Shown piece after piece: positions 5,205 to 28,802 of a DNA stretch of 64,000 nucleotides (position 1 is the first letter of the stretch; each line of letters begins with the position of its first letter). A program made the position numbers and the translations under genes. The DNA is from Chloroflexota bacterium (GTDB taxonomy: Bacteria; Chloroflexota; Anaerolineae; Anaerolineales; Villigracilaceae): the NCBI GenBank assembly GCA_013152325.1, contig JAADGN010000045.1:18310-82309 (forward strand), given 5' to 3'. The notes below the pieces were generated by a model. That model was given only the letters and a program-made list of their open reading frames with translations. It ran no database searches and had not been told where the DNA came from.

Positions 5205-5387
5205 TTAGTGATGCCCGTGACCGTGATGGTCGTGGCCTTCATGCTGACCCAGATATTGCTCCGGATCTTTGTCGAAGGATGCCTTGCAGTTCGGACAACA
5301 GAAGTAGTAGGTCTGCCCCTTGTATTCCGAGGTCGTGGTGACAGACTTCTCGTCAACCTCCATCTTGCATACAGGATCGATAGCCAT
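5205..5387 (-). CDS. YHS/TRASH-domain metal-binding protein with His-rich tail
   Basis: MAIDPVCKMEVDEKSVTTTSEYKGQTYYFCCPNCKASFDKDPEQYLGQHEGHDHHGHGHH. AAAGGAG lies 8 nt upstream of the ATG at 5387. Confidence 0.85.
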   Translation of the reverse strand: MAIDPVCKMEVDEKSVTTTSEYKGQTYYFCCPNCKASFDKDPEQYLGQHEGHDHHGHGHH

Positions 5388-5462
5388 AAGTCGTACTCCT
5401 TTCATGAGTGGAACTTGAATTTTATATACCTTGCGAAACGTGACGGCGCTTGCAAGGTATTC

Positions 5463-5669
5463 CTAGCCCGGCGCGAAGAGATAGATATAAGCGCCAAGCG
5501 CAATCAGAGCAATGAGGATGAGCGCCACCCATCCAATGGGGGTGCTCATCATTCCGGCCATCATCGCCATGCCCCCCATGGCCATGCCTCCGCCGAGCAG
5601 CGCCAACAAGGCGACCAGCAGGACGACGCCAACGATGATCAGCAATACGGTTCCCGCATCTGGTTTCAC
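5463..5669 (-). CDS. small two-helix membrane protein with Met/Gly-rich loop (GGGMAMGGMAMMAGMM)
   Basis: GTG at 5669 is preceded by AAAGGAGG (AAAGGAGGCTGCGTG). The product is 68 aa; the longer track ORF (to 5846) overlaps copA. Confidence 0.6.
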   Translation of the reverse strand: MKPDAGTVLLIIVGVVLLVALLALLGGGMAMGGMAMMAGMMSTPIGWVALILIALIALGAYIYLFAPG

Positions 5670-5790
5670 GCAGCCTCCTTTCTGTTTGGGATGAACGGAT
5701 GCCGGGTCTCCCTCGGGCGCTCCCGCGTCCCCGGCAGTTCTCTGAACCGCCAGGGACCGAGTTGAGTGGGAGGGATCCCCGGCTTTGGGC

Positions 5791-8262
<2,472 letters not shown>

Positions 8263-8309
8263 GGGAATATCCTTTCGGGGCTTCTGGAACAGAGCCCCTT
8301 GCTCGAAAA

Positions 8310-8621
8310 TCACCTGTGTTTCTGTTCCGAGTTCAGAGGGTAGGAAACCCGGGTAAGTATCTGGTACAACAAAATCAGGCGTTGCAGGGCCTGTCCACGC
8401 TCTTGAGAGCAATCGCTGTATTGGATGACCTTCCGGCTCTCTTGAAGCTGCTCGTCGATCATCAGCCGGGCGGCAGCGTGCAGCGCCGCCTGGACTGCGT
8501 TCAGTTGATGGAGCACTTTTCCACACGGTTCGCCAGCCTCCACCATCGCGACCACGGATTGCAGGTGGCCTTTGGCGGATTGCAGGCGGCGAACGACGGG
8601 GTTGCTGCGCTCAAGGGACAT
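8310..8621 (-). CDS. CsoR/RcnR-family (DUF156) transcriptional repressor with non-canonical ligand fingerprint
   Basis: [62 protein letters not shown]... The first Cys is conserved. The residues 25 and 29 positions after it are Q and S, not the H and C of Cu(I)-sensing CsoR. The start may be 8621 or 8633. Confidence 0.8.
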
Positions 8622-8979
8622 GGGTCCATTCATCCACAGACAGGGGCGACAGAGCCGACCGGATGGTCGCCTCCAGGTCGCGGCCGGGAGGGTGGCCGGG
8701 GGAATGCGCCAGGGCCGCCTCCGTTTGTCCGTTGTGCGAGTGAACGATAATGGAAGCCGGGGAGTCCTCGCCCTGATACGCCAGCAAGACGACCAGTTGA
8801 CAATCGCAGGGAACTGTGCCGTGGTGCGGGCAGGCGAGATCGGGGAACGAGGCGCAGGCAGACCGCAAATCAAAGGAACGCACCACGCGTATCCCTGAAC
8901 GCTCCAGGCGTTGGGTAATTTGCTGAATGGCGGTCTCGCAATCCGCTCTCAGAATTGACAAATGGTTGGTCTGGTTCAT
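8611..8979 (-). CDS. uncharacterised Cys/His-rich small protein, paralog A (VVRSFDL...C-x-CPHHG-x5-CDCQ...VLL.Y)
   Basis: 122 aa from the ATG at 8979. It is the first gene after the predicted minus-strand promoter at 9027-9055, and its end overlaps the csoR-like start. It is clearly alignable to the product of 14157-14501. Confidence 0.75.
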   Translation of the reverse strand: MNQTNHLSILRADCETAIQQITQRLERSGIRVVRSFDLRSACASFPDLACPHHGTVPCDCQLVVLLAYQGEDSPASIIVHSHNGQTEAALAHSPGHPPGRDLEATIRSALSPLSVDEWTHVP

Positions 8980-8991
8980 CGCGTTTCTCGT

Positions 8992-9017
8992 TTGTGGCAC
9001 TTTTTTGTGGCACTTTT
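8992..9017. repeat. perfect tandem direct repeat 2 x 13 bp (TTGTGGCACTTTT) in the 5' UTR of the cop unit
   Basis: Read directly: 8992-9004 and 9005-9017 are identical. Each unit contains the mini-palindrome GTGGCAC. The repeat lies between the predicted -10 (9027-9032) and the start codon (8979). Confidence 0.8.
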
Positions 9018-9026
9018 CGTAGCCCC

Positions 9027-9055
9027 AGTATATGCAGCGCACCCCTGAAACGCCA
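9027..9055 (-). promoter_or_regulatory. predicted promoter P1-minus (TGGCGT-17-TATACT) for the cop/ccdA unit
   Basis: On the minus strand: -35 TGGCGT (9055-9050), 17-nt spacer, -10 TATACT (9032-9027). It begins exactly 23 nt from the 7-2-7 repeat. Confidence 0.6.
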
Positions 9056-9078
9056 GCGCCATTTGCCGCATTGACAGG

Positions 9079-9094
9079 TAAGCAATTTTGCCTA
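9079..9094. promoter_or_regulatory. 7-2-7 inverted repeat, site 1 (TAAGCAA-TT-TTGCCTA), shared by divergent promoters
   Basis: It is part of a longer palindrome, CAGGTAAGCAATTTTGCCTACCTG (9075-9098). It lies 23 nt from a -35 hexamer on both strands. Confidence 0.7.
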
Positions 9095-9117
9095 CCTGGG
9101 AACGCGCTTAGTGGCCG

Positions 9118-9146
9118 ATGACATTCAGGATTCAGAAGAGTATGAT
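9118..9146 (+). promoter_or_regulatory. predicted promoter P1-plus (ATGACA-17-TATGAT)
   Basis: -35 ATGACA 9118-9123, 17-nt spacer, -10 TATGAT 9141-9146. This would leave a ~200-nt leader before the ATG at 9354. Confidence 0.55.
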
Positions 9147-9353
9147 GGTAAACAAGAGAAAGCAACACGGCGCAGCCCGGTCACTCCGCCAATGCGGCGA
9201 CCGGGCGTCGACGAAAAAGTCATTCCGTTCCGACCGTTCTGATTGTCCCCTCCGCCCCGCCGCCACAACTGATATCGATAAAGAAGGGGATCACCGACCC
9301 GGCTCTGCAGCGAAAGTCAGGCAGCTGAGCCATACCCGCGAAACGAGGTTTCC

Positions 9354-14156: not shown

Positions 14157-14501
14157 CTAGCTCCTTAAAGTCGGAGAGAACGCGTCCTGGATGGTCTGCG
14201 TCAGCTCTTCGGCTTGTGGACATTCCTCTCCCCAACTCAAGTACGTGGCCCCGTCATGCCCATGCGCGACCAGCGAGACCGGCCGGTCGGCGGTGAGATA
14301 GATGAGCAGCACGATCATCTGGCAGTCGCATTCCGCCATCCCGTGATGGGGGCAGGTGCAGCCTGGGTGTACTGCCCGCGCACGTTGAAAGTCGAACGAG
14401 CGCACCACCTGGAAACCGGAGTCGGCCAAGTGCCGCGTCAAGCGCGCGATGACGGCTTCGCAGTCGTCGGAGACGTTGAACAGGGGAACGGATGGGGTCA
14501 T
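14157..14501 (-). CDS. uncharacterised Cys/His-rich small protein, paralog B (VVRSFDF...CTCPHHG-x5-CDCQMIVLLIY)
   Basis: 114 aa from the ATG at 14501. The predicted promoter at 14524-14552 excludes the longer track start at 14552. It aligns with 8611-8979. Confidence 0.75.
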   Translation of the reverse strand: MTPSVPLFNVSDDCEAVIARLTRHLADSGFQVVRSFDFQRARAVHPGCTCPHHGMAECDCQMIVLLIYLTADRPVSLVAHGHDGATYLSWGEECPQAEELTQTIQDAFSPTLRS

Positions 14502-14523
14502 GAAGGGTGTGCCTCTTGTCACG

Positions 14524-14552
14524 AGTATAAGGAGTCCGCCCGCAATCCCCAA
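14524..14552 (-). promoter_or_regulatory. predicted promoter P2-minus (TTGGGG-17-TATACT)
   Basis: On the minus strand: -35 at 14552-14547, 17-nt spacer, -10 at 14529-14524. It lies 23 nt from repeat site 2. Confidence 0.6.
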
Positions 14553-14575: not shown

Positions 14576-14591
14576 TAAGCCATTTTGCCTA
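14576..14591. promoter_or_regulatory. 7-2-7 inverted repeat, site 2 (TAAGCCA-TT-TTGCCTA)
   Basis: Read directly. The same half-sites and central TT occur at the other four sites. Confidence 0.7.
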
Positions 14592-14724
14592 TAACAGGGC
14601 AATGGCATAAGCAAAACCGCCTACAACAAAACAGGCCAAATAACCGGTGTCTCCTCCAGCAGATGCGGTTATCTTTTAAACAGCCCCTGACTGGAGGCCA
14701 AAACAATTAAGGAGAAAATATCTT

Positions 14725-15250: not shown

Positions 15251-15266
15251 TAAGCCATTTTGCCTG
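15251..15266. promoter_or_regulatory. 7-2-7 inverted repeat, site 3 (TAAGCCA-TT-TTGCCTG)
   Basis: Read directly. It lies 23 nt upstream of ATGTCT. Confidence 0.7.
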
Positions 15267-21780: not shown

Positions 21781-21796
21781 TAGGCAATTTGGCCTG
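21781..21796. promoter_or_regulatory. 7-2-7 inverted repeat, site 4 (TAGGCAA-TT-TGGCCTG)
   Basis: Read directly. It lies 23 nt upstream of ATGACA. Confidence 0.7.
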
Positions 21797-21819: not shown

Positions 21820-21848
21820 ATGACAAGCCCAGGCCTTTCGGCTATGCT
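21820..21848 (+). promoter_or_regulatory. predicted promoter P4 (ATGACA-17-TATGCT) for the PCYCGC/CuA/Fe-S operon
   Basis: -35 at 21820-21825, -10 at 21843-21848. About 45 nt here are nearly identical to promoter P5 (CCCCGCGAGATGGCGCATGACA...TTTCGGCTATGCT). Confidence 0.65.
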
Positions 21849-21882: not shown

Positions 21883-22314
21883 ATGCAAAAACCCCTGACT
21901 TTTCCCCTGTTCCTGCTCGCCGTTCTGTTGTCCGGCGTCTTGTTGGCCGGATGCAGCGGCACGCAAGCCTACGCGCTGGCTCCCCTGGACGGGATGCCTT
22001 TGGATGTACAGAACGCCCCCGCGCCAGTTCGGGAGGCTTACCAATTCGCGGTCGCCAACCCGGAAGTGTTGAAAGACATCCCCTGCTACTGCGGCTGCGG
22101 CGGGATGGGCCACACCTCCAACTACTCATGCTACGTGGCCGATGAGAACGCTGACGGCAGCCTGGTCTTCGAGGGGCACGCGCTGGGATGCTCCATCTGC
22201 GTGGACATCACCCAGGACGCCATGCGCATGATCGACCAAGGCAAGACCGTTCCCGAAATCCGCGCCTACGTGGACCAGACCTACAGCCGCTTCGGGCCGT
22301 CGAATATGCCGTGA
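21883..22314 (+). CDS. PCYCGC-motif lipoprotein
   Basis: MQKPLTFPLFLLAVLLSGVLLAGCSG lipobox. DIPCYCGCGGMGHTSNYSCY and HALGCSICVDI motifs. The start is set by the promoter position; the track start 21820 lies inside the -35. Confidence 0.8.
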   Translation: MQKPLTFPLFLLAVLLSGVLLAGCSGTQAYALAPLDGMPLDVQNAPAPVREAYQFAVANPEVLKDIPCYCGCGGMGHTSNYSCYVADENADGSLVFEGHALGCSICVDITQDAMRMIDQGKTVPEIRAYVDQTYSRFGPSNMP

Positions 22315-22320
22315 TCGGGC

Positions 22321-22785
22321 ATGATGAAAAGCTCTCCCGCCCTTCTTCGCAATGCCGTTTTCCTGGCGGCCGCACTGTTGGTCGCTTTCGCTCCGCTGCC
22401 CCTGCCCCAAACACCCCCGGCAGAGCGCACTTTTCGAATAGATGCCACCCAGTTCGCCTTCGCACCCGCCGTGCTGACAGTCAATCCCGGCGACCGCGTG
22501 ACGATTGAATTGACCTCGCTGGATGTCGTCCACGGCCTGTACCTGGACGGCTACGACCTGCAAATCAGCGCCGACCCCGGACAGACTGCCACAATGACCT
22601 TTGTGGCCGACCGCGCCGGAAGTTTCCGCTTTCGCTGCGCGGCGACCTGCGGCGACCTGCATCCCTTCATGATCGGCAAACTGCACGTCGGGCCGAACAC
22701 CCTGTTGTGGCGCAGCATCGGGCTGGCCCTCCTGGCAATGTTCGCCGCGGTCATGCTTGGGATGCCTCGACTGCGCAAGGCATAA
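22321..22785 (+). CDS. cupredoxin-domain protein with complete CuA-type ligand set and C-terminal TM helix
   Basis: VVHG-x34-CAATCGDLHPFM, i.e. H...C-x3-C-x3-H-x2-M as in COX subunit II / NosZ CuA. It has an N-terminal signal and a C-terminal helix WRSIGLALLAMFAAVMLG. Confidence 0.8.
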   Translation: MMKSSPALLRNAVFLAAALLVAFAPLPLPQTPPAERTFRIDATQFAFAPAVLTVNPGDRVTIELTSLDVVHGLYLDGYDLQISADPGQTATMTFVADRAGSFRFRCAATCGDLHPFMIGKLHVGPNTLLWRSIGLALLAMFAAVMLGMPRLRKA

Positions 22786-22794
22786 AACGCCATC

Positions 22795-24156
22795 ATGCCA
22801 AAATACGACCTGCTCCGCATCCCTCTGCTTCGCAAAACGCTTGAAAGCCGCTGGCCGCAACTGATCCTGCGGGCGGCGGCTTTGGGCGGATTCGCGATTG
22901 CCATCCTGGCCGGGCTGCTGGGGACGCGGGTGGGCAACCACAATTTTGCCATTGTGGTCGTCTGGATCGCCTGGTGGGCCGCGCTGATGCTGTTGGCGGT
23001 CCCCCTCCTGGGACGCGGCTGGTGCGCGATCTGCCCCATCCCGATGCCCGGCGAATGGCTGCAAAACGGGGCCGCACTCGGCCCCGTCCAGGACGGGAGC
23101 AGGCACGGACGGAGTCTGAAGCGTTTCCCAAAATCCTTCCGCAATATCTGGATGCAGAACGTCGCCTTCACCCTGCTGGCGCTGTTCAGCGCGGTCATCC
23201 TGACCCGCCCCAGCGTCACCGGCTGGATACTGTTGGGAATGCTGCTGGTCGCCGTCGGCGCCAGTCTGGTTTATGAGCGCCGGACGTTCTGCCGTTACAT
23301 CTGCCCGGTGGGCGGATTTATCGGTCTGTATTCGCAGTTGGCCCCGCTCGAACTGCGCGTGGTGGACACAAAGATCTGCGCCGCGCACAAGGAGAAATCC
23401 TGCTACCGCGGTAATGCGGAAGGCTACGGCTGCCCATGGGACGTTTTCCCCGGCGGGCTGGCGGTGAACACAAACTGCGGCCTGTGCATGGAATGCCTGC
23501 GCACCTGCGAGTACGACAACATCGCCCTCAACCTGCGCGCCCCCGGCGCCGACCTGGATCCGCCGCACGGCCTGAAACTGGACGAAGCCTACAAGGCCTT
23601 TATCATGCTGGGCAGCGCGCTGGTGTACTCGGCAGTCATGCTGGGCCCGTGGGGCGCGCTGAAGACCGCGGCCTACTCGATAGGGTCGCCAGCCTGGTGG
23701 GGCTACGCGCTGGGCTTGCTGGTCCTCATCTGGGGGTTGCTGCCCGGCCTGTTCTACCTGACCACGCGCGCCGCACAGGCGCTCGCTCCCGTCCGCCTGC
23801 CGCCGCGCAAGCTGTTCGCGCGCTACGCCGCGGCGCTGATACCGCTTGGGCTGACCGCCTGGATCGCCTTCAGCATCTCGTTCGTCTTCGCCAACATTTC
23901 GTATCTCTGGCCGGTGCTCTCCGACCCGTTTGGATGGGGCTGGGATCTCTTCGGCACGGCCGGGGCGGGTTGGACGCCTTATCTCTCCCTGGCCGTCCCC
24001 ATGCTGCAAGTCGTTGTGCTGCTGGGCGGGCTGTTTTGGTCGGGGCGCACGGCGGCGAAAATCGCAGCGGAACAAGGCGCTCGCCGCCATGTCTGGCCGG
24101 TGACAGGCTTCAACACTCTCGTGACGATAGGTTTGCTATGGCTACTGGTCGGATGA
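22795..24156 (+). CDS. polytopic 4Fe-4S-binding membrane protein (NapH/NosH/CcoG-like)
   Basis: GWCAICPIP, FCRYICPVGGF and NCGLCMECLRTCEYDNI Cys clusters are interspersed with about 8 hydrophobic helices. Confidence 0.8.
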   Translation: MPKYDLLRIPLLRKTLESRWPQLILRAAALGGFAIAILAGLLGTRVGNHNFAIVVVWIAWWAALMLLAVPLLGRGWCAICPIPMPGEWLQNGAALGPVQDGSRHGRSLKRFPKSFRNIWMQNVAFTLLALFSAVILTRPSVTGWILLGMLLVAVGASLVYERRTFCRYICPVGGFIGLYSQLAPLELRVVDTKICAAHKEKSCYRGNAEGYGCPWDVFPGGLAVNTNCGLCMECLRTCEYDNIALNLRAPGADLDPPHGLKLDEAYKAFIMLGSALVYSAVMLGPWGALKTAAYSIGSPAWWGYALGLLVLIWGLLPGLFYLTTRAAQALAPVRLPPRKLFARYAAALIPLGLTAWIAFSISFVFANISYLWPVLSDPFGWGWDLFGTAGAGWTPYLSLAVPMLQVVVLLGGLFWSGRTAAKIAAEQGARRHVWPVTGFNTLVTIGLLWLLVG

Positions 24157-25175
24157 AAAAGGAATGGCTGGCACGTCTGCTGGTGCTGGCCCTGGTCGTC
24201 GGTTTTTCCGCCGCAGCGCTGTACGCGCGCTGGGCCGACCGAACGCTCGAAGTCCACGCCGCCATGCCCGAAAAAGGCGGCTGGCTGCCCAACACGCTCA
24301 CGGCCCGGGCGGACGAACCGCTGACGCTGCGGCTGATCTCCGACGACGTGGTGCACGGCTTCGCCATCGGGCAAAGCGACCAGCAGCCGTCGGTGGATAT
24401 CCTGCCGGGCAAACCCGTCGAAATCACGCTGCTCTTTGACAAGCCGGGCACCTACACGTACTACTGCACGCGCTGGTGCGGACCCAACCACTGGCGGATG
24501 CGCGGCACGATCGAAGTGGAGGGAGACGATTCCTCGCTGGCGAACGACCCTAGCGGCCCCGTCGCGCCGCCCCTGTACCTGATGCTGGGCATCGACCTGG
24601 ACGCCCCGCACGATGTCCAGGTTGACGTGACCCGACAGCCCTCCGCCCGGCGCGGCGCGGCCCTGGACACAAACCTGCCCGCCGAGATGCTCTCCCGCGA
24701 GTACGTCCGCGCCCACAGTCCCTACGAGGTCTGGCAAACCCTGCGGGAAACGCCCGCCGCCAGCCCATTGAGCGATGCGGATCTCTGGGATCTGGTCGCC
24801 CGGCTCTGGGAACGCAGCACCACGCCGGATGCGCTGCAAACCGGCGCGCAGCTCTACGCCCAGAACTGCGCGACCTGCCACGGCACGACGGGCGCCGGGG
24901 ACGGCGTCTTCGCGGCCGCGCTGGCAGGCGAGACGTCTGCAACGCCAATTTCGCCCGGCCTCGGCCACGAGACTGTCGCGCCGACCGATTTCAGCGACCC
25001 GGCCCACATGCTGGGCGCCAGTCCCGCCCTGCTGCACGGCAAGATCATCCGCGGCGGCATGGGGACGGGCATGCCCTCCTGGGGCCTGATCTTCACCGAC
25101 GAACAAACCTGGGCGCTCACCGATTATCTATGGACTTTCACTTTTCAATTTCAATTCAAGGAGACAACACCATGA
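24153..25175 (+). CDS. membrane-anchored CuA-type cupredoxin fused to a c-type cytochrome domain (COX subunit II-like, orphan)
   Basis: MKKEWLARLLVLALVVGFSAAALY anchor. VVHG-x36-CTRWCGPNHWRM matches the CuA pattern. The C-terminal domain has CATCHG plus MPSWG. The ATG at 24153 overlaps the upstream TGA (ATGA). Confidence 0.8.
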   Translation: MKKEWLARLLVLALVVGFSAAALYARWADRTLEVHAAMPEKGGWLPNTLTARADEPLTLRLISDDVVHGFAIGQSDQQPSVDILPGKPVEITLLFDKPGTYTYYCTRWCGPNHWRMRGTIEVEGDDSSLANDPSGPVAPPLYLMLGIDLDAPHDVQVDVTRQPSARRGAALDTNLPAEMLSREYVRAHSPYEVWQTLRETPAASPLSDADLWDLVARLWERSTTPDALQTGAQLYAQNCATCHGTTGAGDGVFAAALAGETSATPISPGLGHETVAPTDFSDPAHMLGASPALLHGKIIRGGMGTGMPSWGLIFTDEQTWALTDYLWTFTFQFQFKETTP

Positions 25176-25687
25176 GTAAAAGAAAGAGCAAACGCAGACC
25201 AAGCCGGCGCAGGAAAAAGAAAACATTGCCCATGCCACTGATCCTGCTGCTTGGCGGGGTGCTGTTGGCAGCCGCGGGCTTTGCCCTGGCCGCCCAGAAT
25301 TCCAACAGCGGCGTCACCGCCGCCGACCCGTCATTGGTCACCGTTCAGGGCCAGCCCAGCCTGAAAGTGGATCAGGAGTTGATCGACTACGGCGACGTCA
25401 AGCTGAACACCAACCTGACTTTCACCCTGACCCTGACCAACGTCGGCGACAAAACGCTGCGCTTCAGCGAGACGCCCTACATCGAAGTTCGGGAGGGCTG
25501 CTGACCGCCTGCCCTGACCATCGGTTCGATGGTCCTCAAGCCAGGCCAAAGCACCACCCTTGAATCCAGCGTGTTCATGATGCACGAGGGCATGGAGGGG
25601 CCGCACGATTTTCGCGTCCACATCCCCAGCAACGACCCGGATGCGGCGGACAAAACCGTCACAGTGCTCTCCAACTGGGTACGCTGA
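25172..25687 (+). CDS. DUF1573-like exported protein with in-frame TGA at 25502-25504 (candidate selenocysteine; otherwise truncated at 25504)
   Basis: The ATG overlaps the upstream TGA (ATGA). The product reads ...LIDYGDVKLNTNLTFTLTLTNVGDKTLRFSETPYIEVREGC-TGA-PPALTIGSMVLKPGQSTTLESSVFMMHEGMEGPHDFRVHIPSNDPDAADKTVTVLSNWVR-TGATAA. The frame stays open for 61 more codons, and the domain only looks complete with readthrough. Confidence 0.55.
25516..25534 (+). promoter_or_regulatory. SECIS-like hairpin 11 nt downstream of the in-frame TGA
   Basis: GACCATCG-GTT-CGATGGTC is a perfect 8-bp stem. The apical loop contains GU and starts 20 nt after the TGA. Confidence 0.45.
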
Positions 25688-25704: not shown

Positions 25705-25720
25705 TAGGCGGTTTGGCCTA
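25705..25720. promoter_or_regulatory. 7-2-7 inverted repeat, site 5 (TAGGCGG-TT-TGGCCTA)
   Basis: Read directly. It is embedded in GCATAGGC-GGTTTG-GCCTATGC. Confidence 0.7.
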
Positions 25721-25743: not shown

Positions 25744-25772
25744 ATGACACGCGCCGGTTTTTCGGCTATGCT
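25744..25772 (+). promoter_or_regulatory. predicted promoter P5 (ATGACA-17-TATGCT)
   Basis: -35 at 25744-25749, -10 at 25767-25772, 23 nt from site 5. The ATG at 25796 follows AGGAGA. Confidence 0.65.
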
Positions 25773-25795: not shown

Positions 25796-26892
25796 ATGCA
25801 CCCAAAGGACAATCCTTCCCTTAATCGTCGAGACTTTCTCAAGCTGGGCGCGCTCGGTTTCGGCGCGCTGGCTATGCGCCCCTGGGAGCGTTCACTCCCC
25901 TCGCAAGATTTCCCCCAATCCGAACGCCTGGGACGCGTCGTGGTCGGCAAGCTGGACGTCAAATCCCGCCCCGACGCGGCCAGCCAGACAGTCGGCACCC
26001 TCTACGAGGACGCCGTCGTCGCCTGGCTGCGCGAGACGACCGGCCCCATGCCGTATCGTCCGAACCAGCGCTGGGTCGAAACGCCCGACGGGTTCGTCTG
26101 GTCGCCGTACCTGCAGCCGGTGCGCAACGAGAAAAACGTCCCGTTGAACGCGCTCCCCGAAACGAGCCTCGGCCCGGGCATGTGGGCGGAGGTCACCACC
26201 CCCTACGTCAACCTGACGCTCGCCAATCCGCCCGCCCGCGCGCCCTGGCTGGTCAACCGCCTCCAAAGCACGCTGCCGCCGCGCTTCTTCTACAGTCAGA
26301 TCGCCTGGATCAATCAAGTCCGGGCGGACGATGCGGGGCAAATCTGGTACCAGATCCAGGAACGCTACAGCTACGGCGACGCCTTCTGGGTCCCGGCGGA
26401 AACGATGCGCCCCCTGACCGCCGAAGACGTCAGCCCCATCAGCCCCGAGGTGGAAGACAAGCGCATCCTGGTGGACATCACCTATCAAACCCTGTCCTGC
26501 TACGAGGGCAACACCGAGGTCTACTTCTGCCGCATTTCCAGCGGCGCGCTGTTCGACTACCAGGGCAACCGCGTGGACGCCTGGAGCACGCCGCCCGGCC
26601 GGCACCGCATCTGGCGCAAGGCTGTCTCGCTGCCCCTGAGCGGCGGCTCGGCTGCCGTCGGCTGGGACCTGCCCGCAGTCGGCTGGACGACCCTCTTGGC
26701 GTCGCCATCCACTCGACCTATTGGCACAACAACTACGGCGTGCCGACCTCGCGCGGCTGCGTCAACGCCCGCCCGGATGACGCCAAATGGATCTTCCGCT
26801 GGACCCAGCCAGTCGTCCCCTATGACCCCGGCGACGTCACCGTCTCGATGCCCGGCGGCACACTGATCGAAGTTACGGAGAAACAATTATGA
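25796..26892 (+). pseudogene. Tat-exported L,D-transpeptidase (YkuD domain) interrupted by a -1 nt frameshift near 26697
   Basis: Frame A gives MHPKDNPSLNRRDFLKLGALGFGALAM...VGWDLPAVGWTTL. Frame B continues GVAIHSTYWHNNYGVPTSRGCVNARPDDAKWIFRW (catalytic H...GC motif). One missing base in CTCTT|GGC joins them. This could be a sequencing indel rather than true decay. Confidence 0.7.
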
Positions 26893-27524
26893 CCCGACCT
26901 GACCCGCGCGCCACGGCGCGCACCCGCGCTCGCTACCAACGTATTTCGGGTCTCTACGACCTGATGGAAATCCTGCCGGAAAAACGCTACACGTCCTGGC
27001 GGGAACAACTCTGGGCACAGGTGCACGGCCCCAACGTCCTGGAAATCGGGGTCGGCACCGGCAAAAATATGCCTTTTTACCCCCCGGGACTGCACATCAC
27101 CGCCATTGACCTGACCCCCGGCATGTTGGCCCGCGCCCGCAAGCGCGCCGCCGAACTCACCCTGGACGTGGACTTGCGGCTGGGCGACGCGCAGGCGCTC
27201 GACTTTCCGGACGACTCCTTCGACAGCGTGGTTGCCACCTTCGTGTTCTGCTCCATCCCGGACCCGATCCTGGGCCTGCGCGAAATCCGCCGCGTCCTGA
27301 AACCGGGCGGATGCCTGTACTTGCTGGAACACATGCGCTCCCCCAACCCATCCATCGGCCGCGTGATGGACACCCTCAACCCGCTGGTCGTGCGCATGAT
27401 GGGCGCCAATATCAACCGCCGCACGGTGGAGAACGTCCGCTCGGCTGGTTTCGAGGTGGCCGAAGCGGCAAATTTGGCGGCTGGCGGCATTTTCAAGCGT
27501 GTCGTCGCCTGCAAACAACAATAA
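26889..27524 (+). CDS. class I SAM-dependent methyltransferase
   Basis: VLEIGVGTGKN motif I and LKPGGCLYLLEH. The ATG overlaps the upstream TGA. Confidence 0.8.
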   Translation: MTRPDPRATARTRARYQRISGLYDLMEILPEKRYTSWREQLWAQVHGPNVLEIGVGTGKNMPFYPPGLHITAIDLTPGMLARARKRAAELTLDVDLRLGDAQALDFPDDSFDSVVATFVFCSIPDPILGLREIRRVLKPGGCLYLLEHMRSPNPSIGRVMDTLNPLVVRMMGANINRRTVENVRSAGFEVAEAANLAAGGIFKRVVACKQQ

Positions 27525-27607
27525 GTCTTTATCCTACCTTTAAACTCTCTTTACACAAGCCTGCTATCCTAATCGAAAAGCAATTCATTCAAATTCGGAG
27601 GAATCTA

Positions 27608-27961
27608 ATGAAACGAAATACCATTTGGATCATCATCATTGTACTGGTCGCCATAGTGCTGTTCCTGCTGCCCAGCCTGTTCATGTACGGCCGCAGCGGC
27701 TGGACTGACGGCTACGGTATGATGGGCGGCAGTGGCATGATGGGCGGCTACGGCATGATGGGCGGCTGGATGTTCCTGGGCTGGTTGATCCCGGTCGGAA
27801 TTCTCATCCTGGTCATCGCCGGCGGCGTTTGGCTGGGGAACACCCTCAGCAACCGCGGCAGCGCGCCCCCCGCCGCTCCGGCGCGGACCTGCTCGAACTG
27901 CAGCAAGCCCGTCGCCGCCGACTGGAAGACCTGCCCGTACTGCGGCACCCCGCTGGAATAA
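27608..27961 (+). CDS. membrane protein with (G)YGMMGG repeats and C-terminal zinc ribbon
   Basis: MKRNTIWIIIIVLVAIVLFLL...GYGMMGGSGMMGGYGMMGGWMFLGWLIPVGILILVIAGG...CSNCSKPVAADWKTCPYCGTPLE. GGAGGA lies upstream of the ATG at 27608. Confidence 0.7.
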   Translation: MKRNTIWIIIIVLVAIVLFLLPSLFMYGRSGWTDGYGMMGGSGMMGGYGMMGGWMFLGWLIPVGILILVIAGGVWLGNTLSNRGSAPPAAPARTCSNCSKPVAADWKTCPYCGTPLE

Positions 27962-27971
27962 GGAGCCTATC

Positions 27972-28256
27972 ATGTGCGGCGGCGGCCCTATTCGACAACT
28001 CTTAAATGCTGCGCAGCAGGTCTCCTCCTCGCCGGAGGAGACAATGCCGCGCCCACCCCGAACGGCGGAAATGACCTGCCCAACCTGTCACACGCCGGTA
28101 CAGGCCAGTTTCACCTGGTGTCCAACCTGCGGAGCGGCGCTCAAGCCGCAGCCCTGCGTCTATTGCGGCCAGATTCTCGCCCCGGAAGATAAAAACTGTT
28201 CCGCGTGCGGCGCGCCGCGAGCGCGTTCCCGGGCCGGGTCAGCGAATTCGGTTTGA
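27972..28256 (+). CDS. double zinc-ribbon protein
   Basis: CPTCHTPVQASFTWCPTCGAAL and CVYCGQILAPEDKNCSACGAP. The start is uncertain (27972 or the internal ATG at 28044). Confidence 0.55.
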   Translation: MCGGGPIRQLLNAAQQVSSSPEETMPRPPRTAEMTCPTCHTPVQASFTWCPTCGAALKPQPCVYCGQILAPEDKNCSACGAPRARSRAGSANSV

Positions 28257-28274
28257 TCCCGCAGGAGTGAAAAA

Positions 28275-28802
28275 GTGAAAAGAACATCTCAAGTCATCCT
28301 GATCTTTTTGGTCGGGAACCTGTTACTGGCTGCCTGCATCCCCCTCTGGCGGGGCGCGCCCAACAGCCCCATGAATCCCGGCCGCGGCTGGTGGGGCAGC
28401 GGGAACTTCGCTTCGAACGGCGAGCAGATCTATTTCACGGCCACCAACCAAAACGGTGAGCGGATCGCCTATTCCGGCGGGGCGGGCTACGGCGGCATGA
28501 TGATGAGCAGCGCATCGCTCACCTGCGCTTCCTGCCACGGCGTGGACGGGCGCGGCGGGGAACACGTCATGCACATGGACGTCATGGACGCCCCCGATAT
28601 CCGCTACACGGCTCTCAACAGCGAAGAAGAACACGAGGAAGAGGGCGGCCACGACGGCGAATATGATCTGGAAACCTTCCGCCAGGCCGTAGTCAATGGG
28701 CAGCATCCCGACGGCGCTCTCCTCGACCGCGATATGCCCCGCTGGCAGATGAGCGACCAAGACCTGGCCGACCTGCTTGAATACCTGAAGACGTTACCGT
28801 AG
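28275..28802 (+). CDS. exported c-type cytochrome with acidic/His-rich insert
   Basis: GTG start after AGGAGTGAAAAA. It has a signal anchor, CASCHG, and a Met-rich stretch GGMMMSS. Confidence 0.75.
   Translation: MKRTSQVILIFLVGNLLLAACIPLWRGAPNSPMNPGRGWWGSGNFASNGEQIYFTATNQNGERIAYSGGAGYGGMMMSSASLTCASCHGVDGRGGEHVMHMDVMDAPDIRYTALNSEEEHEEEGGHDGEYDLETFRQAVVNGQHPDGALLDRDMPRWQMSDQDLADLLEYLKTLP

Follow-up and report, generated by a model that had tools for sequence, protein, structure and literature searches.

A conserved Anaerolineae operon encoding two orphan CuA-type cupredoxins, an FtrD-like polyferredoxin, and a selenoprotein, with a possible role in copper handling outside the cytoplasmic membrane

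The 64-kb stretch of Chloroflexota DNA analyzed here (referred to throughout as the window; its source genome assembly is 2.95 Mb in length and 92% complete) carries on its plus strand an operon of five genes. These encode, in order, a PCYCGC (CYCXC) lipoprotein (21883-22314), an exported CuA-type cupredoxin of 154 residues with a C-terminal membrane helix (Cup1, 22321-22785), a polytopic FtrD-like polyferredoxin of 453 residues (the Fe-S protein, 22795-24156), a 340-residue protein with an N-terminal transmembrane (TM) helix, a second CuA cupredoxin, a linker, and a mono-heme c domain (Cup2::cyt c, 24153-25175), and a membrane-anchored Ig-like (DUF1573/PapD-like) selenoprotein (25172-25687) with an in-frame TGA at 25502-25504. 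The computational analysis supports the identification of the two cupredoxins as orphan CuA-type proteins that are not oxidase subunits. The parts are of known kinds, but their combination, and free-standing CuA proteins in particular, is new; literature searches on the component families and their pairings found no publication describing this operon. It is proposed, with a little less than even confidence, that the five proteins constitute one membrane-bound redox module in which outward electron transfer serves to reduce or otherwise handle copper outside the cytoplasmic membrane; complex formation, the direction of electron flow, copper as the substrate, and the route across the membrane are elements that we infer.

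The five genes are separated, in order, by a 6-nt gap, a 9-nt gap, and two ATGA overlaps, so that the tightness noted previously for the last three junctions is borne out by the coordinates. Counts of related loci given below refer to the best 80, those closest to the Fe-S protein, of which 65 have room for all four core genes. The order PCYCGC–Cup1–FeS–Cup2::cyt c is preserved in 64 of these 65 loci, indicating that the arrangement is not due to chance and giving a positive answer to the question of operon conservation raised in the first-pass annotation. The position of the selenoprotein gene is more variable, being downstream in 24 loci, upstream in 14, and between the Cup1 and Fe-S genes in 6. 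Relatives of the Fe-S protein number 503 among GTDB species representatives, mostly from Anaerolineae and other Chloroflexota, with some from Gemmatimonadota and Actinomycetota. One locus, from Clostridiales bacterium PH28_bin88 (L070), has a layout and coordinates identical to those of Bellilinea/Levilinea loci, and its Cup2, together with those of two loci from Pseudomonadota metagenome-assembled genome (MAG) data (L036 and L044), falls within Anaerolineae clades in the tree; these three are likely to represent binning errors in the source MAGs.

CuA is a textbook component of cytochrome oxidase, N2O reductase, and a few NO reductases and, to our knowledge, has so far been known solely within oxidases and N2O/NO reductases. 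Both cupredoxins of the operon carry the full CuA ligand pattern with the His-to-Cys spacing originally read from the sequence: in Cup1, His71 is followed after 34 residues by Cys106-x3-Cys110-x3-His114-x2-Met117, and in Cup2, His68 is followed after 36 residues by Cys105-x3-Cys109-x3-His113-x2-Met116. The five Cup1 ligands are invariant in 61 of 61 orthologues and those of Cup2 are kept in 69-70 of 70. The complete CxxCH heme motif of Cup2 (C239ATC242H) is read from the window sequence; Cys242 is present in 69 of the 70 sequences and the likely axial Met in 68. Both proteins score above the cut-off for PF00116 (COX2; 29.9 bits for Cup1 and 24.5 bits for Cup2), and the C-terminal domain of Cup2 matches PF00034 (Cytochrom_C) with 51.6 bits. 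The nearest solved relative of each is the CuA domain of Thermus thermophilus ba3 oxidase (E values of 2e-14 for Cup1 and 6e-10 for Cup2), with NosZ and caa3 subunit II as further nearest structures. However, the scores with the CoxB model TIGR02866 (47.2 and 45.9 bits for the two cupredoxins) are far below the equivalog cut-off of 147.7, and those with the NosZ models TIGR04246 and TIGR04244 do not exceed 54 bits against a cut-off of 625; there is no NosZ β-propeller domain in either Cup1 or Cup2.

The phylogeny that had been recommended against the CuA domains of COX2 and NosZ was constructed with genuine domains from the same class (30 A-family COX2, 10 B-family COX2, and 7 NosZ). Cup1 and Cup2 form separate and well-supported clades (99/95 and 95/97, respectively), which lie outside COX2-A, COX2-B, and NosZ. 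A Glu is present between the two Cys ligands in 30/30 COX2-A, 8/10 COX2-B, and 7/7 NosZ sequences (CAELC, CHEYC, CTEFC) but is replaced by Val or Ala in Cup1 (mostly CSVTC or CNVTC in the family, CAATC in the window) and by Arg, followed by Trp, in Cup2 (CTRWC). In oxidases this Glu faces subunit I, and its loss therefore fits a different partner. The likeness of Cup2 to caa3 subunit II that had been pointed out holds for the order of the domains and for nothing beyond it. Similarly, its single TM helix is confirmed, but this is not the unusual feature that it was taken to be, as B-family (ba3-type) subunit II normally has one helix; the B-family COX2 genes of the same class encode proteins of just 156-204 residues. 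The Cup2::cyt c relatives scored in public data make up more than 3,300 protein clusters; among those listed, the names given are mostly "cytochrome c oxidase subunit 2," "plastocyanin," or "c-type cytochrome." Reconstructions of the metabolism of Anaerolineae and other MAGs in which coxB is taken as evidence of aerobic respiration will be misled.

The suggestion that the cupredoxins have no catalytic partner was extended to the whole genome and is sustained by it. No subunit I (PF00115) is encoded in the window, and in the 92%-complete assembly the search for COX1/NorB, both of which are covered by PF00115, gave a single sub-threshold match of 19.7 bits, on two small 4-TM proteins. This match, on contig C10, was rejected as an oxidase; the two proteins, 144 and 172 residues in length, are encoded in tandem (locus L001, 1058-1890, on G000:C10). 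The Cup1 and Cup2 genes are the only PF00116 matches in the entire assembly, and as this model did find the NosZ of relatives, it would also have revealed any NosZ encoded in the assembled part of the genome; a search of the genome with PF18764, the NosZ propeller, gave no match, and the control was likewise unmatched. Of 201 sampled genomes of the class, 35 have an orthologue of the Fe-S protein; COX1 is found in 27 of these 35 as compared with 123 of the whole 201. The eight orthologue-bearing genomes without COX1 are 75-96% complete and include G021 (96%), G120 (95%), G121 and G161 (93%), and the source genome (92%). The complete genome G119 contains COX1 with its own adjacent COX2 in addition to two copies of the operon, while in G021 and G161, which are COX1-less, the operon's pair are the only COX2-like genes. 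The objection that the second cupredoxin might be the sole, genuine subunit II of an oxidase is consequently inapplicable.

It is, in addition, highly improbable that Cup2::cyt c functions as a real oxidase subunit II, or as the CuA portion of a reductase for N2O or NO, whose partner lies elsewhere in the genome or is missing from the assembly. The public annotation as "cytochrome c oxidase subunit 2" and the status of ba3 and caa3 subunit II as best solved relatives have to be set against CoxB scores of 46-47 bits, clades of Cup1 and Cup2 distinct from all three reference groups, and the replacement of the Glu between the CuA cysteines in both proteins. The incompleteness of the source genome and the occurrence of COX1 in all five genomes of the same family would leave room for a missing partner, but G119 keeps a separate COX2 beside its COX1, and several high-quality genomes have the operon and no COX1. 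The constant partner is instead the polyferredoxin, which is even fused to Cup1 in some relatives.

Fer4_5 is the sole Pfam family that the Fe-S protein matches above cut-off. Its Cys motifs are C77xxC80P, C166xxxC170P, C195/C203/C213P, and C228xxC231xxC234xxxC238; the CxxCP and CxxCxxCxxxC clusters described in the first-pass annotation are thus present, except that the second proline-containing motif is CxxxCP and not CxxCP. In 42 orthologues, 11 Cys residues (77, 80, 166, 170, 195, 203, 213, 228, 231, 234, and 238) are invariant, as is a loop, S376-D-P-x3-G-W383, which reads SDPFGWGWD in the window. The AlphaFold model (pLDDT 87.9, pTM 0.88) has about nine long helices; the protein has no counterpart in the PDB by sequence, and a fold search with the model returned nothing at E ≤ 0.001. 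Lys and Arg residues, located from the sequence and the model helices, are concentrated in the N terminus and in the loops 73-118, 160-261, 331-347, and ∼427-432, a distribution which indicates that the CxxCP-type motifs and the ferredoxin-like domain are cytoplasmic and that the SDPFGWGWD loop is outside. This topology agrees with that of the N-terminal fusions described below, in which an exported domain is followed by one helix and then by the Fe-S protein.

The proposed resemblance to NapH and CcoG holds at the level of the superfamily, through the Fer4_5 motif, but is marginal for NapH, as the protein reaches 21.8 bits with the NapH/MauN model TIGR02163 (cut-off 213), and fails for CcoG, as TIGR02745 gives no match at E ≤ 0.01 and there is no FixG_C or Fer4_18 domain. 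The relative that matches it along its full length is FtrD. The first link was a weak tblastn match to a "4Fe-4S binding protein" on an Azospirillum brasilense plasmid (NZ_CP012918), where the order P19, small protein, FTR1, and polyferredoxin identifies an ftrABCD cluster. In an hhalign comparison, the Fe-S protein aligns with this Azospirillum FtrD over 327 columns (residues 48-429 with 58-424, both proteins being 453 residues long) with a probability of 98.8% and an E value of 9e-17. FtrABCD is a ferrous-iron system of Bordetella, Brucella, Burkholderia, and Rubrivivax that includes the cupredoxin FtrB and the membrane polyferredoxin FtrD.

Paralogues of the Fe-S protein, about 30% identical to it, are paired with a YtkA-like (CtaK-like) protein in two loci (L086, on G042:C22, and L087, on G125:C119), where COX2/COX1 genes and alternative-complex-III genes flank the pair, and the same pair is located 3 kb upstream of the operon in G119 (L084, 4524-6676). 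YtkA/CtaK is described as a CuA-assembly factor of Bacillus (PMC9145763, PMC13344008), and the pair may represent a reductase plus a chaperone for the loading of oxidases with copper.

Natural fusions provide further information about the partners of the Fe-S family. Cup1 and the Fe-S protein are encoded by a single reading frame in four genomes, which represent three families (G012, G059, G125, and G065), in the order CuA domain, Cup1 C-terminal helix, short linker, and Fe-S protein N terminus; no such fusion occurs among the 80 closest loci, the examples being in more distant families. An exhaustive search of 1.84 billion representative proteins identified 315 relatives of the Fe-S protein at E ≤ 1e-30, the best 150 of which were examined. 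Among these 150 clusters, 20 have an N-terminal domain with a full CuA motif, and 36 have another N-terminal extension, including degenerate cupredoxins, NosL (PF05573, in P0192), YHS (PF04945, in P0202), and TlpA-like redoxins (P0133 and P0149); cytochrome c or c554-like domains are found in 4. The commonest fusion partners are copper-binding domains. In five clusters (1103, 1248, 920, 937, and 975 residues in length), an insertion of more than 250 residues with a Rossmann motif interrupts the Fe-S domain, and in the three that were scanned with Pfam (P0143, P0149, and P0165), this is a GltD-like NAD(P)H flavoprotein module composed of Fer4_20 and Pyr_redox_2. P0143 is 42% identical to the Fe-S protein of the window on both sides of the insertion, which lies between residues 198 and 202; a search of the related loci with P0143 found only generic stand-alone GltD-like genes. 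In GltD-type modules, NAD(P)H is the electron source, and FAD and Fe-S clusters relay the electrons to a partner. The fusions indicate that the Fe-S domain is cytoplasmic, that the outer face of the protein works with a copper-binding or, less often, a heme domain, and that electrons are derived from NAD(P)H in at least some members. The quinol-driven route suggested in the first-pass annotation finds no such backing, as no evidence for a quinol site was found and the input module in the fused relatives is an NAD(P)H flavoprotein.

The homology with FtrD over its full length also raises the reverse arrangement, that of a metal oxidase operating in the direction of FtrABCD, in which Cu(I) or Fe(II) on the PCYCGC and Sec proteins would be oxidized at the CuA and heme c centers and the electrons would pass inward to the polyferredoxin; this would detoxify copper without O2, in place of a multicopper oxidase, or assist iron uptake. 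Published descriptions make FtrB a putative Cu-oxidase of the periplasm and FtrD a polyferredoxin of the membrane (PMC7415376; PMC11966278), but Cup1 has no similarity to FtrB. Electrons in caa3 oxidase run from heme c to CuA, toward the membrane partner, which would suit this direction; transfer from CuA or cytochrome c, at about +0.25 V, to a [4Fe-4S] cluster, and inward against the membrane potential, would nevertheless be uphill, and the flavoprotein borne by the relatives on the cytoplasmic side is an electron-input module. A CopA-type exporter beside the operon fits a role in detoxification, but the source genome also encodes a multicopper oxidase. As regards iron, an FTR1 permease adjoins the operon in 3 of the 80 loci, and iron uptake was ranked low because this adjacency is so rare; FTR1 and P19 are absent from the operon itself, and the FTR1 gene of the source genome is on another contig, unlinked to it. 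On this evidence, a metal oxidase is the principal alternative but appears unlikely.

The two remaining proteins have features of metal-binding sites. The PCYCGC lipoprotein matches PF13798 with 99.6 bits (cut-off 25) but falls below the cut-off of NF041379 (78.1 as compared with 90 bits). It has a lipobox Cys (Cys24), and C68, C70, C72, H77, C83, H99, and C106 are invariant in 72 sequences; in all, seven Cys and two His residues are kept. In the last gene of the operon, the position of the window TGA codon is occupied in related loci by TGA in 38 cases and by TGT or TGC in 6, giving the motif G-C-[U/C]-P-P (G109-C110-U111-P112-P113 in the window). A SECIS-like hairpin with an 8-bp stem starts 12 nt past the UGA (25516..25534, plus strand), the predicted fold of the RNA from 25499 to 25560 having an energy of −22.7 kcal/mol (z = −3.8), and the source genome encodes SelB (340.9 bits) and SelA (539.1 bits), both above their cut-offs. 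With the alternation of TGA and Cys codons, the hairpin, and SelA and SelB all in place, the gene that had been put forward as a candidate is, by prediction, a genuine selenoprotein gene.

The model of the selenoprotein (pLDDT 85.8) consists of a membrane helix followed by a PapD/ASH-like sandwich, and a fold search with it returned generic Ig domains of the PapD/ASH/HYDIN type, with the DUF1573 structure 2qsv at rank 8. The match to DUF1573 itself (PF07610) is below the cut-off (14.7 as compared with 26.1 bits), and the motif is GCUPP and not UGC or CGC. A second motif, M137-H138-x2-M141-x3-H145, has M137, M141, G143, and H145 invariant and H138 nearly so in 33 sequences and, to judge from the order of strands in the model, the Cys-Sec loop and the M-H-x2-M-x3-H loop should share one end of the sandwich. 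Residues of these four kinds, Cys, Sec, Met, and His, are typical ligands of Cu(I). The GCUPP sequence represents a new Sec motif in a probable metal-binding protein, as opposed to a classical redox enzyme. DUF1573 and CYCXC are both listed as prokaryotic selenoprotein families, and the same lists contain Sec-containing MerT, an E1-E2 cation-transporting ATPase, and a putative mercuric reductase (PMC9312934, PMC13188914). The operon also has, as a frequent extra neighbor, a gene for a canonical DUF1573 protein of the all-Cys form (TCGCT motif), located at 5305-5901 of locus L009 and present in 14 other loci.

The coupling and occasional fusion of CuA with the polyferredoxin, the copper-binding partners of its relatives, the NAD(P)H module, the Cu(I)-type ligands, and the location of the operon in an island of copper genes together suggest a link between a cytoplasmic reductant and copper outside the membrane. 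In the proposed mechanism, the FtrD-like polyferredoxin would hold its Fe-S clusters in the cytoplasm and present its conserved loop on the outer face, where Cup1, anchored by its C-terminal helix beside the first helix of the polyferredoxin, would dock; Cup2, with a second CuA and a c-type heme, would lengthen the chain, and the PCYCGC lipoprotein and the Ig-like selenoprotein, with its Cys-Sec and Met/His ligands, would bind metal. The most likely electron path would lead from a cytoplasmic reductant through the Fe-S clusters to the CuA of Cup1 and from there to the CuA and heme c of Cup2. As Fe-S clusters have low potentials and CuA and cytochrome c have potentials near +0.25 V, flow in the outward direction would be downhill. 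The outcome could be the reduction of Cu(II) to Cu(I), or the maintenance of bound copper and of thiol and selenol ligands in a reduced state, after which the copper would be passed on or sequestered within the copper-island regulon. Of the functions envisaged in the first-pass annotation, that of a copper reduction or insertion machine is consistent with the copper-island context and with the fusion of the Fe-S family to copper-binding domains. A precedent within Fer4_5 is CcoG, which Marckmann et al. (cited in PMC7558416) call a cupric reductase in their title.

It should be recognized that several observations weigh against this proposal. The operon's own Fe-S protein is without the flavoprotein module of its relatives, no heme-binding His is conserved in its helices, and no membrane-bridging cofactor is evident in it. 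The published model for FtrB and FtrD runs in the opposite direction, from metal to cupredoxin to polyferredoxin. The production of Cu(I), the more toxic form, beside a CopA exporter would be odd unless the Cu(I) were captured at once. The fold search with the selenoprotein model gave no copper chaperone, and explicit copper markers are present within 6 kb of the operon in 15 of 32 long loci, only about half.

Some family members are, furthermore, fused to cytochromes, which fits the general export of electrons better than a copper-specific role. In its developed form, this alternative regards the operon as a branch for respiratory or extracellular electron transfer in general, without copper as a substrate: electrons would be exported, or quinol oxidized, by the polyferredoxin, the CuA and heme centers would serve as wires to a terminal oxidase, a periplasmic enzyme, or an external acceptor, and the Cys/Sec proteins would assemble CuA. 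CuA and heme c are indeed classic electron-transfer centers, and the cytochrome partners in the family include multiheme c554-like domains, but copper-binding domains are the commoner fusion partners. Further cytochrome c genes belong to the same regulon, but the neighbors of the operon are copper and thiol-redox genes rather than respiratory ones. The frequency of COX1 among orthologue-bearing genomes (27/35, as compared with 123/201 in the sample) would accord with this reading, although 8 of the 35 lack it at 75-96% completeness, and no quinol-binding module was identified. We consider such a branch quite unlikely.

The operon is preceded by a 7-2-7 inverted-repeat operator, TAGGCAATTTGGCCTG (21781..21796), with the consensus TAGGCAA-NN-TTGCCTA, which has 9 matches in the window as compared with 1.2 expected; 27 of 66 related loci have it in the 320 nt that precede the PCYCGC gene, for an expectation of 0.03 per 320 nt. 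A σ70-like promoter, ATGACA-17-TATGCT (21820..21848, plus strand), identified by pattern match in a consensus scan, begins 23 nt past the operator, and identical hexamers with the same spacing recur at 25744-25772, behind an operator at 25705 and before the next operon. As pattern matches, these elements agree with the earlier proposal that the operon is expressed from a promoter shared within a regulon. A 70-nt repeat upstream of the operon resolves into this operator and promoter; an Rfam scan of the window found three tRNAs and nothing else, so that the repeat is not a known RNA family. Copies of the palindrome at 9079-9094, 14576-14591, 14608-14623, 15251-15266, 21781-21796, and 25705-25720 define a local regulon. 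NarL-family sites have the same 7-2-7 layout, and the NarL-type two-component system is the obvious candidate regulator: a two-component system is the commonest neighbor of the operon, found in 21 of 32 long related loci, and a NarL-type response regulator is near the operon in 34 of the 80 loci (by clustering) and its histidine kinase in 25.

Other frequent neighbors in the 80 loci are TlpA (15), DUF2085 (14), a methyltransferase (14), CopA (11, or 8 by tblastn), CcdA (10), DoxX (9), Lgt (9), and HMA proteins (7-9). The window contains a two-HMA P1B ATPase of the CopA type (5791-8526, minus strand) and also encodes CcdA, cytochromes c, DUF2085, and a NarL-type response regulator. In G119, the setting of the operon comprises CopA, DUF2703-like, TlpA, Lgt, methyltransferase, Cupredoxin_1, DoxX, and YtkA-like genes upstream, followed by the Fe-S paralogue, HMA, other genes, a second HMA, the operon, a Met-rich histidine kinase, a response regulator, and a Met-rich protein. 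In locus L009, the FTR1 gene beside the operon (6530-7344) is matched in two same-frame pieces that are exactly one codon apart (6880/6883), a break that could reflect a further in-frame stop or Sec codon.

Two paralogous Cys/His-rich proteins of about 130 residues (…HPGCTCPHHGMAECDCQM…), encoded on the minus strand at 14157-14552 and 8611-9168, have no Pfam family; both adjoin copies of the operator, the family is present in 9 related loci, and its members may bind metal. Under the second operator, the region 26889-28802 encodes a UbiE-like methyltransferase, a Met/Gly-rich membrane protein with a zinc ribbon (MGGSGMMGGYGMMGG), a double zinc-ribbon protein, and a 175-residue cytochrome c, and the methyltransferase and cytochrome recur near the operon in four loci (L004, L009, L020, and L053). 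The L,D-transpeptidase (YkuD) gene downstream of the operon (25796-26892) is apparently frameshifted, the catalytic ...SRGCVNA... part being in the frame of the open reading frame 26182-26892 and the N-terminal part in another; the tblastn matches of relatives to the YkuD translation from the window are split over two frames, as would be expected if their genes were intact.

Two CuA centers conserved as independent proteins, even where no enzyme of the classical kinds is found, would constitute a new context for CuA. As compared with ba3 and caa3 subunit II and with the CuA domain of NosZ, they share the cupredoxin fold, the full H...C-x3-C-x3-H-x2-M pattern, and the spacing of 34 to 36 residues, and Cup2 has one TM helix as in ba3 and a C-terminal cytochrome c as in caa3; they differ in having no subunit I or catalytic domain, in forming distinct clades, in the loss of the Glu, and in scores far below the equivalog cut-offs. 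The beta-sandwich and thiol proteins that assemble CuA (PCuAC, YtkA/CtaK, Sco, and TlpA) resemble the additional proteins of the operon in being extracytoplasmic and membrane-tethered, in having Met/His or Cys ligands, and in being encoded beside CuA genes, and TlpA-like and CcdA genes are frequent neighbors of the operon. However, there is no match to these factors in sequence or fold, and the ligands of the operon proteins are a vicinal Cys-Sec with M-H-x2-M-x3-H in one and a seven-Cys PCYCGC domain in the other. Among known selenoproteins, DUF1573 occurs in a UGC form; the selenoprotein of the operon has an Ig-like fold resembling the DUF1573 structure 2qsv, but Sec is here in G-C-U-P-P; the CYCXC/OS_HP4 selenoproteins have a UxxC form, whereas the PCYCGC protein of the window is an all-Cys form.

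Comparison of the Fe-S protein with other polyferredoxins places it in a broader context. NapH, NosH, NosR, and MauN similarly have CxxCP-type motifs after membrane helices and a cytoplasmic 2×[4Fe-4S]-like domain, and NosH and NosR serve an enzyme with a CuA center. The operon, in contrast, has no NapG/NosG partner or FMN domain, and its Fe-S protein has about 9 helices as compared with 4 to 6; genomes that have the operon but no NosZ are common. CcoG/RdxA/FixG, a cupric reductase involved in the assembly of cbb3 oxidase, likewise belongs to the Fer4_5 membrane proteins, has its [4Fe-4S] motifs in the cytoplasm, and acts together with an extracytoplasmic Ig-like domain, and the connection with copper supply is shared in that paralogues of the present Fe-S protein occur with YtkA-like proteins beside COX genes; the operon protein differs in its C-terminal five-helix domain, and its Ig-like partner is a separate selenoprotein. 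The natural fusions suggest that the Fer4_5 polyferredoxins NapH, NosR, CcoG, and FtrD have a common role in linking a cytoplasmic reductant to an outward copper or, sometimes, heme site, and if this is correct, the role of FtrD and the electron path of CcoG become testable. A further extension, which is possible but on balance doubtful, is that FtrD-like polyferredoxins are widespread and unrecognized transmembrane electron exporters, a prokaryotic counterpart of the Fre/STEAP metalloreductases of eukaryotes, carrying electrons from NAD(P)H or ferredoxin to copper centers outside, with CuA acting in this operon as the wire and the Cys-Sec protein as the copper-handling end. The nearest known system remains FtrABCD, with which the operon shares a polyferredoxin that is homologous over almost its entire length and the pairing of this protein with an exported cupredoxin. 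The operon lacks the FTR1 permease (FtrC) and P19 (FtrA) of that system, and Cup1 gave no BLASTP alignment with FtrB; in their place it has two CuA-type cupredoxins, one of them with heme c, and two added Cys/Sec proteins, in a context of copper rather than of Fur and iron.

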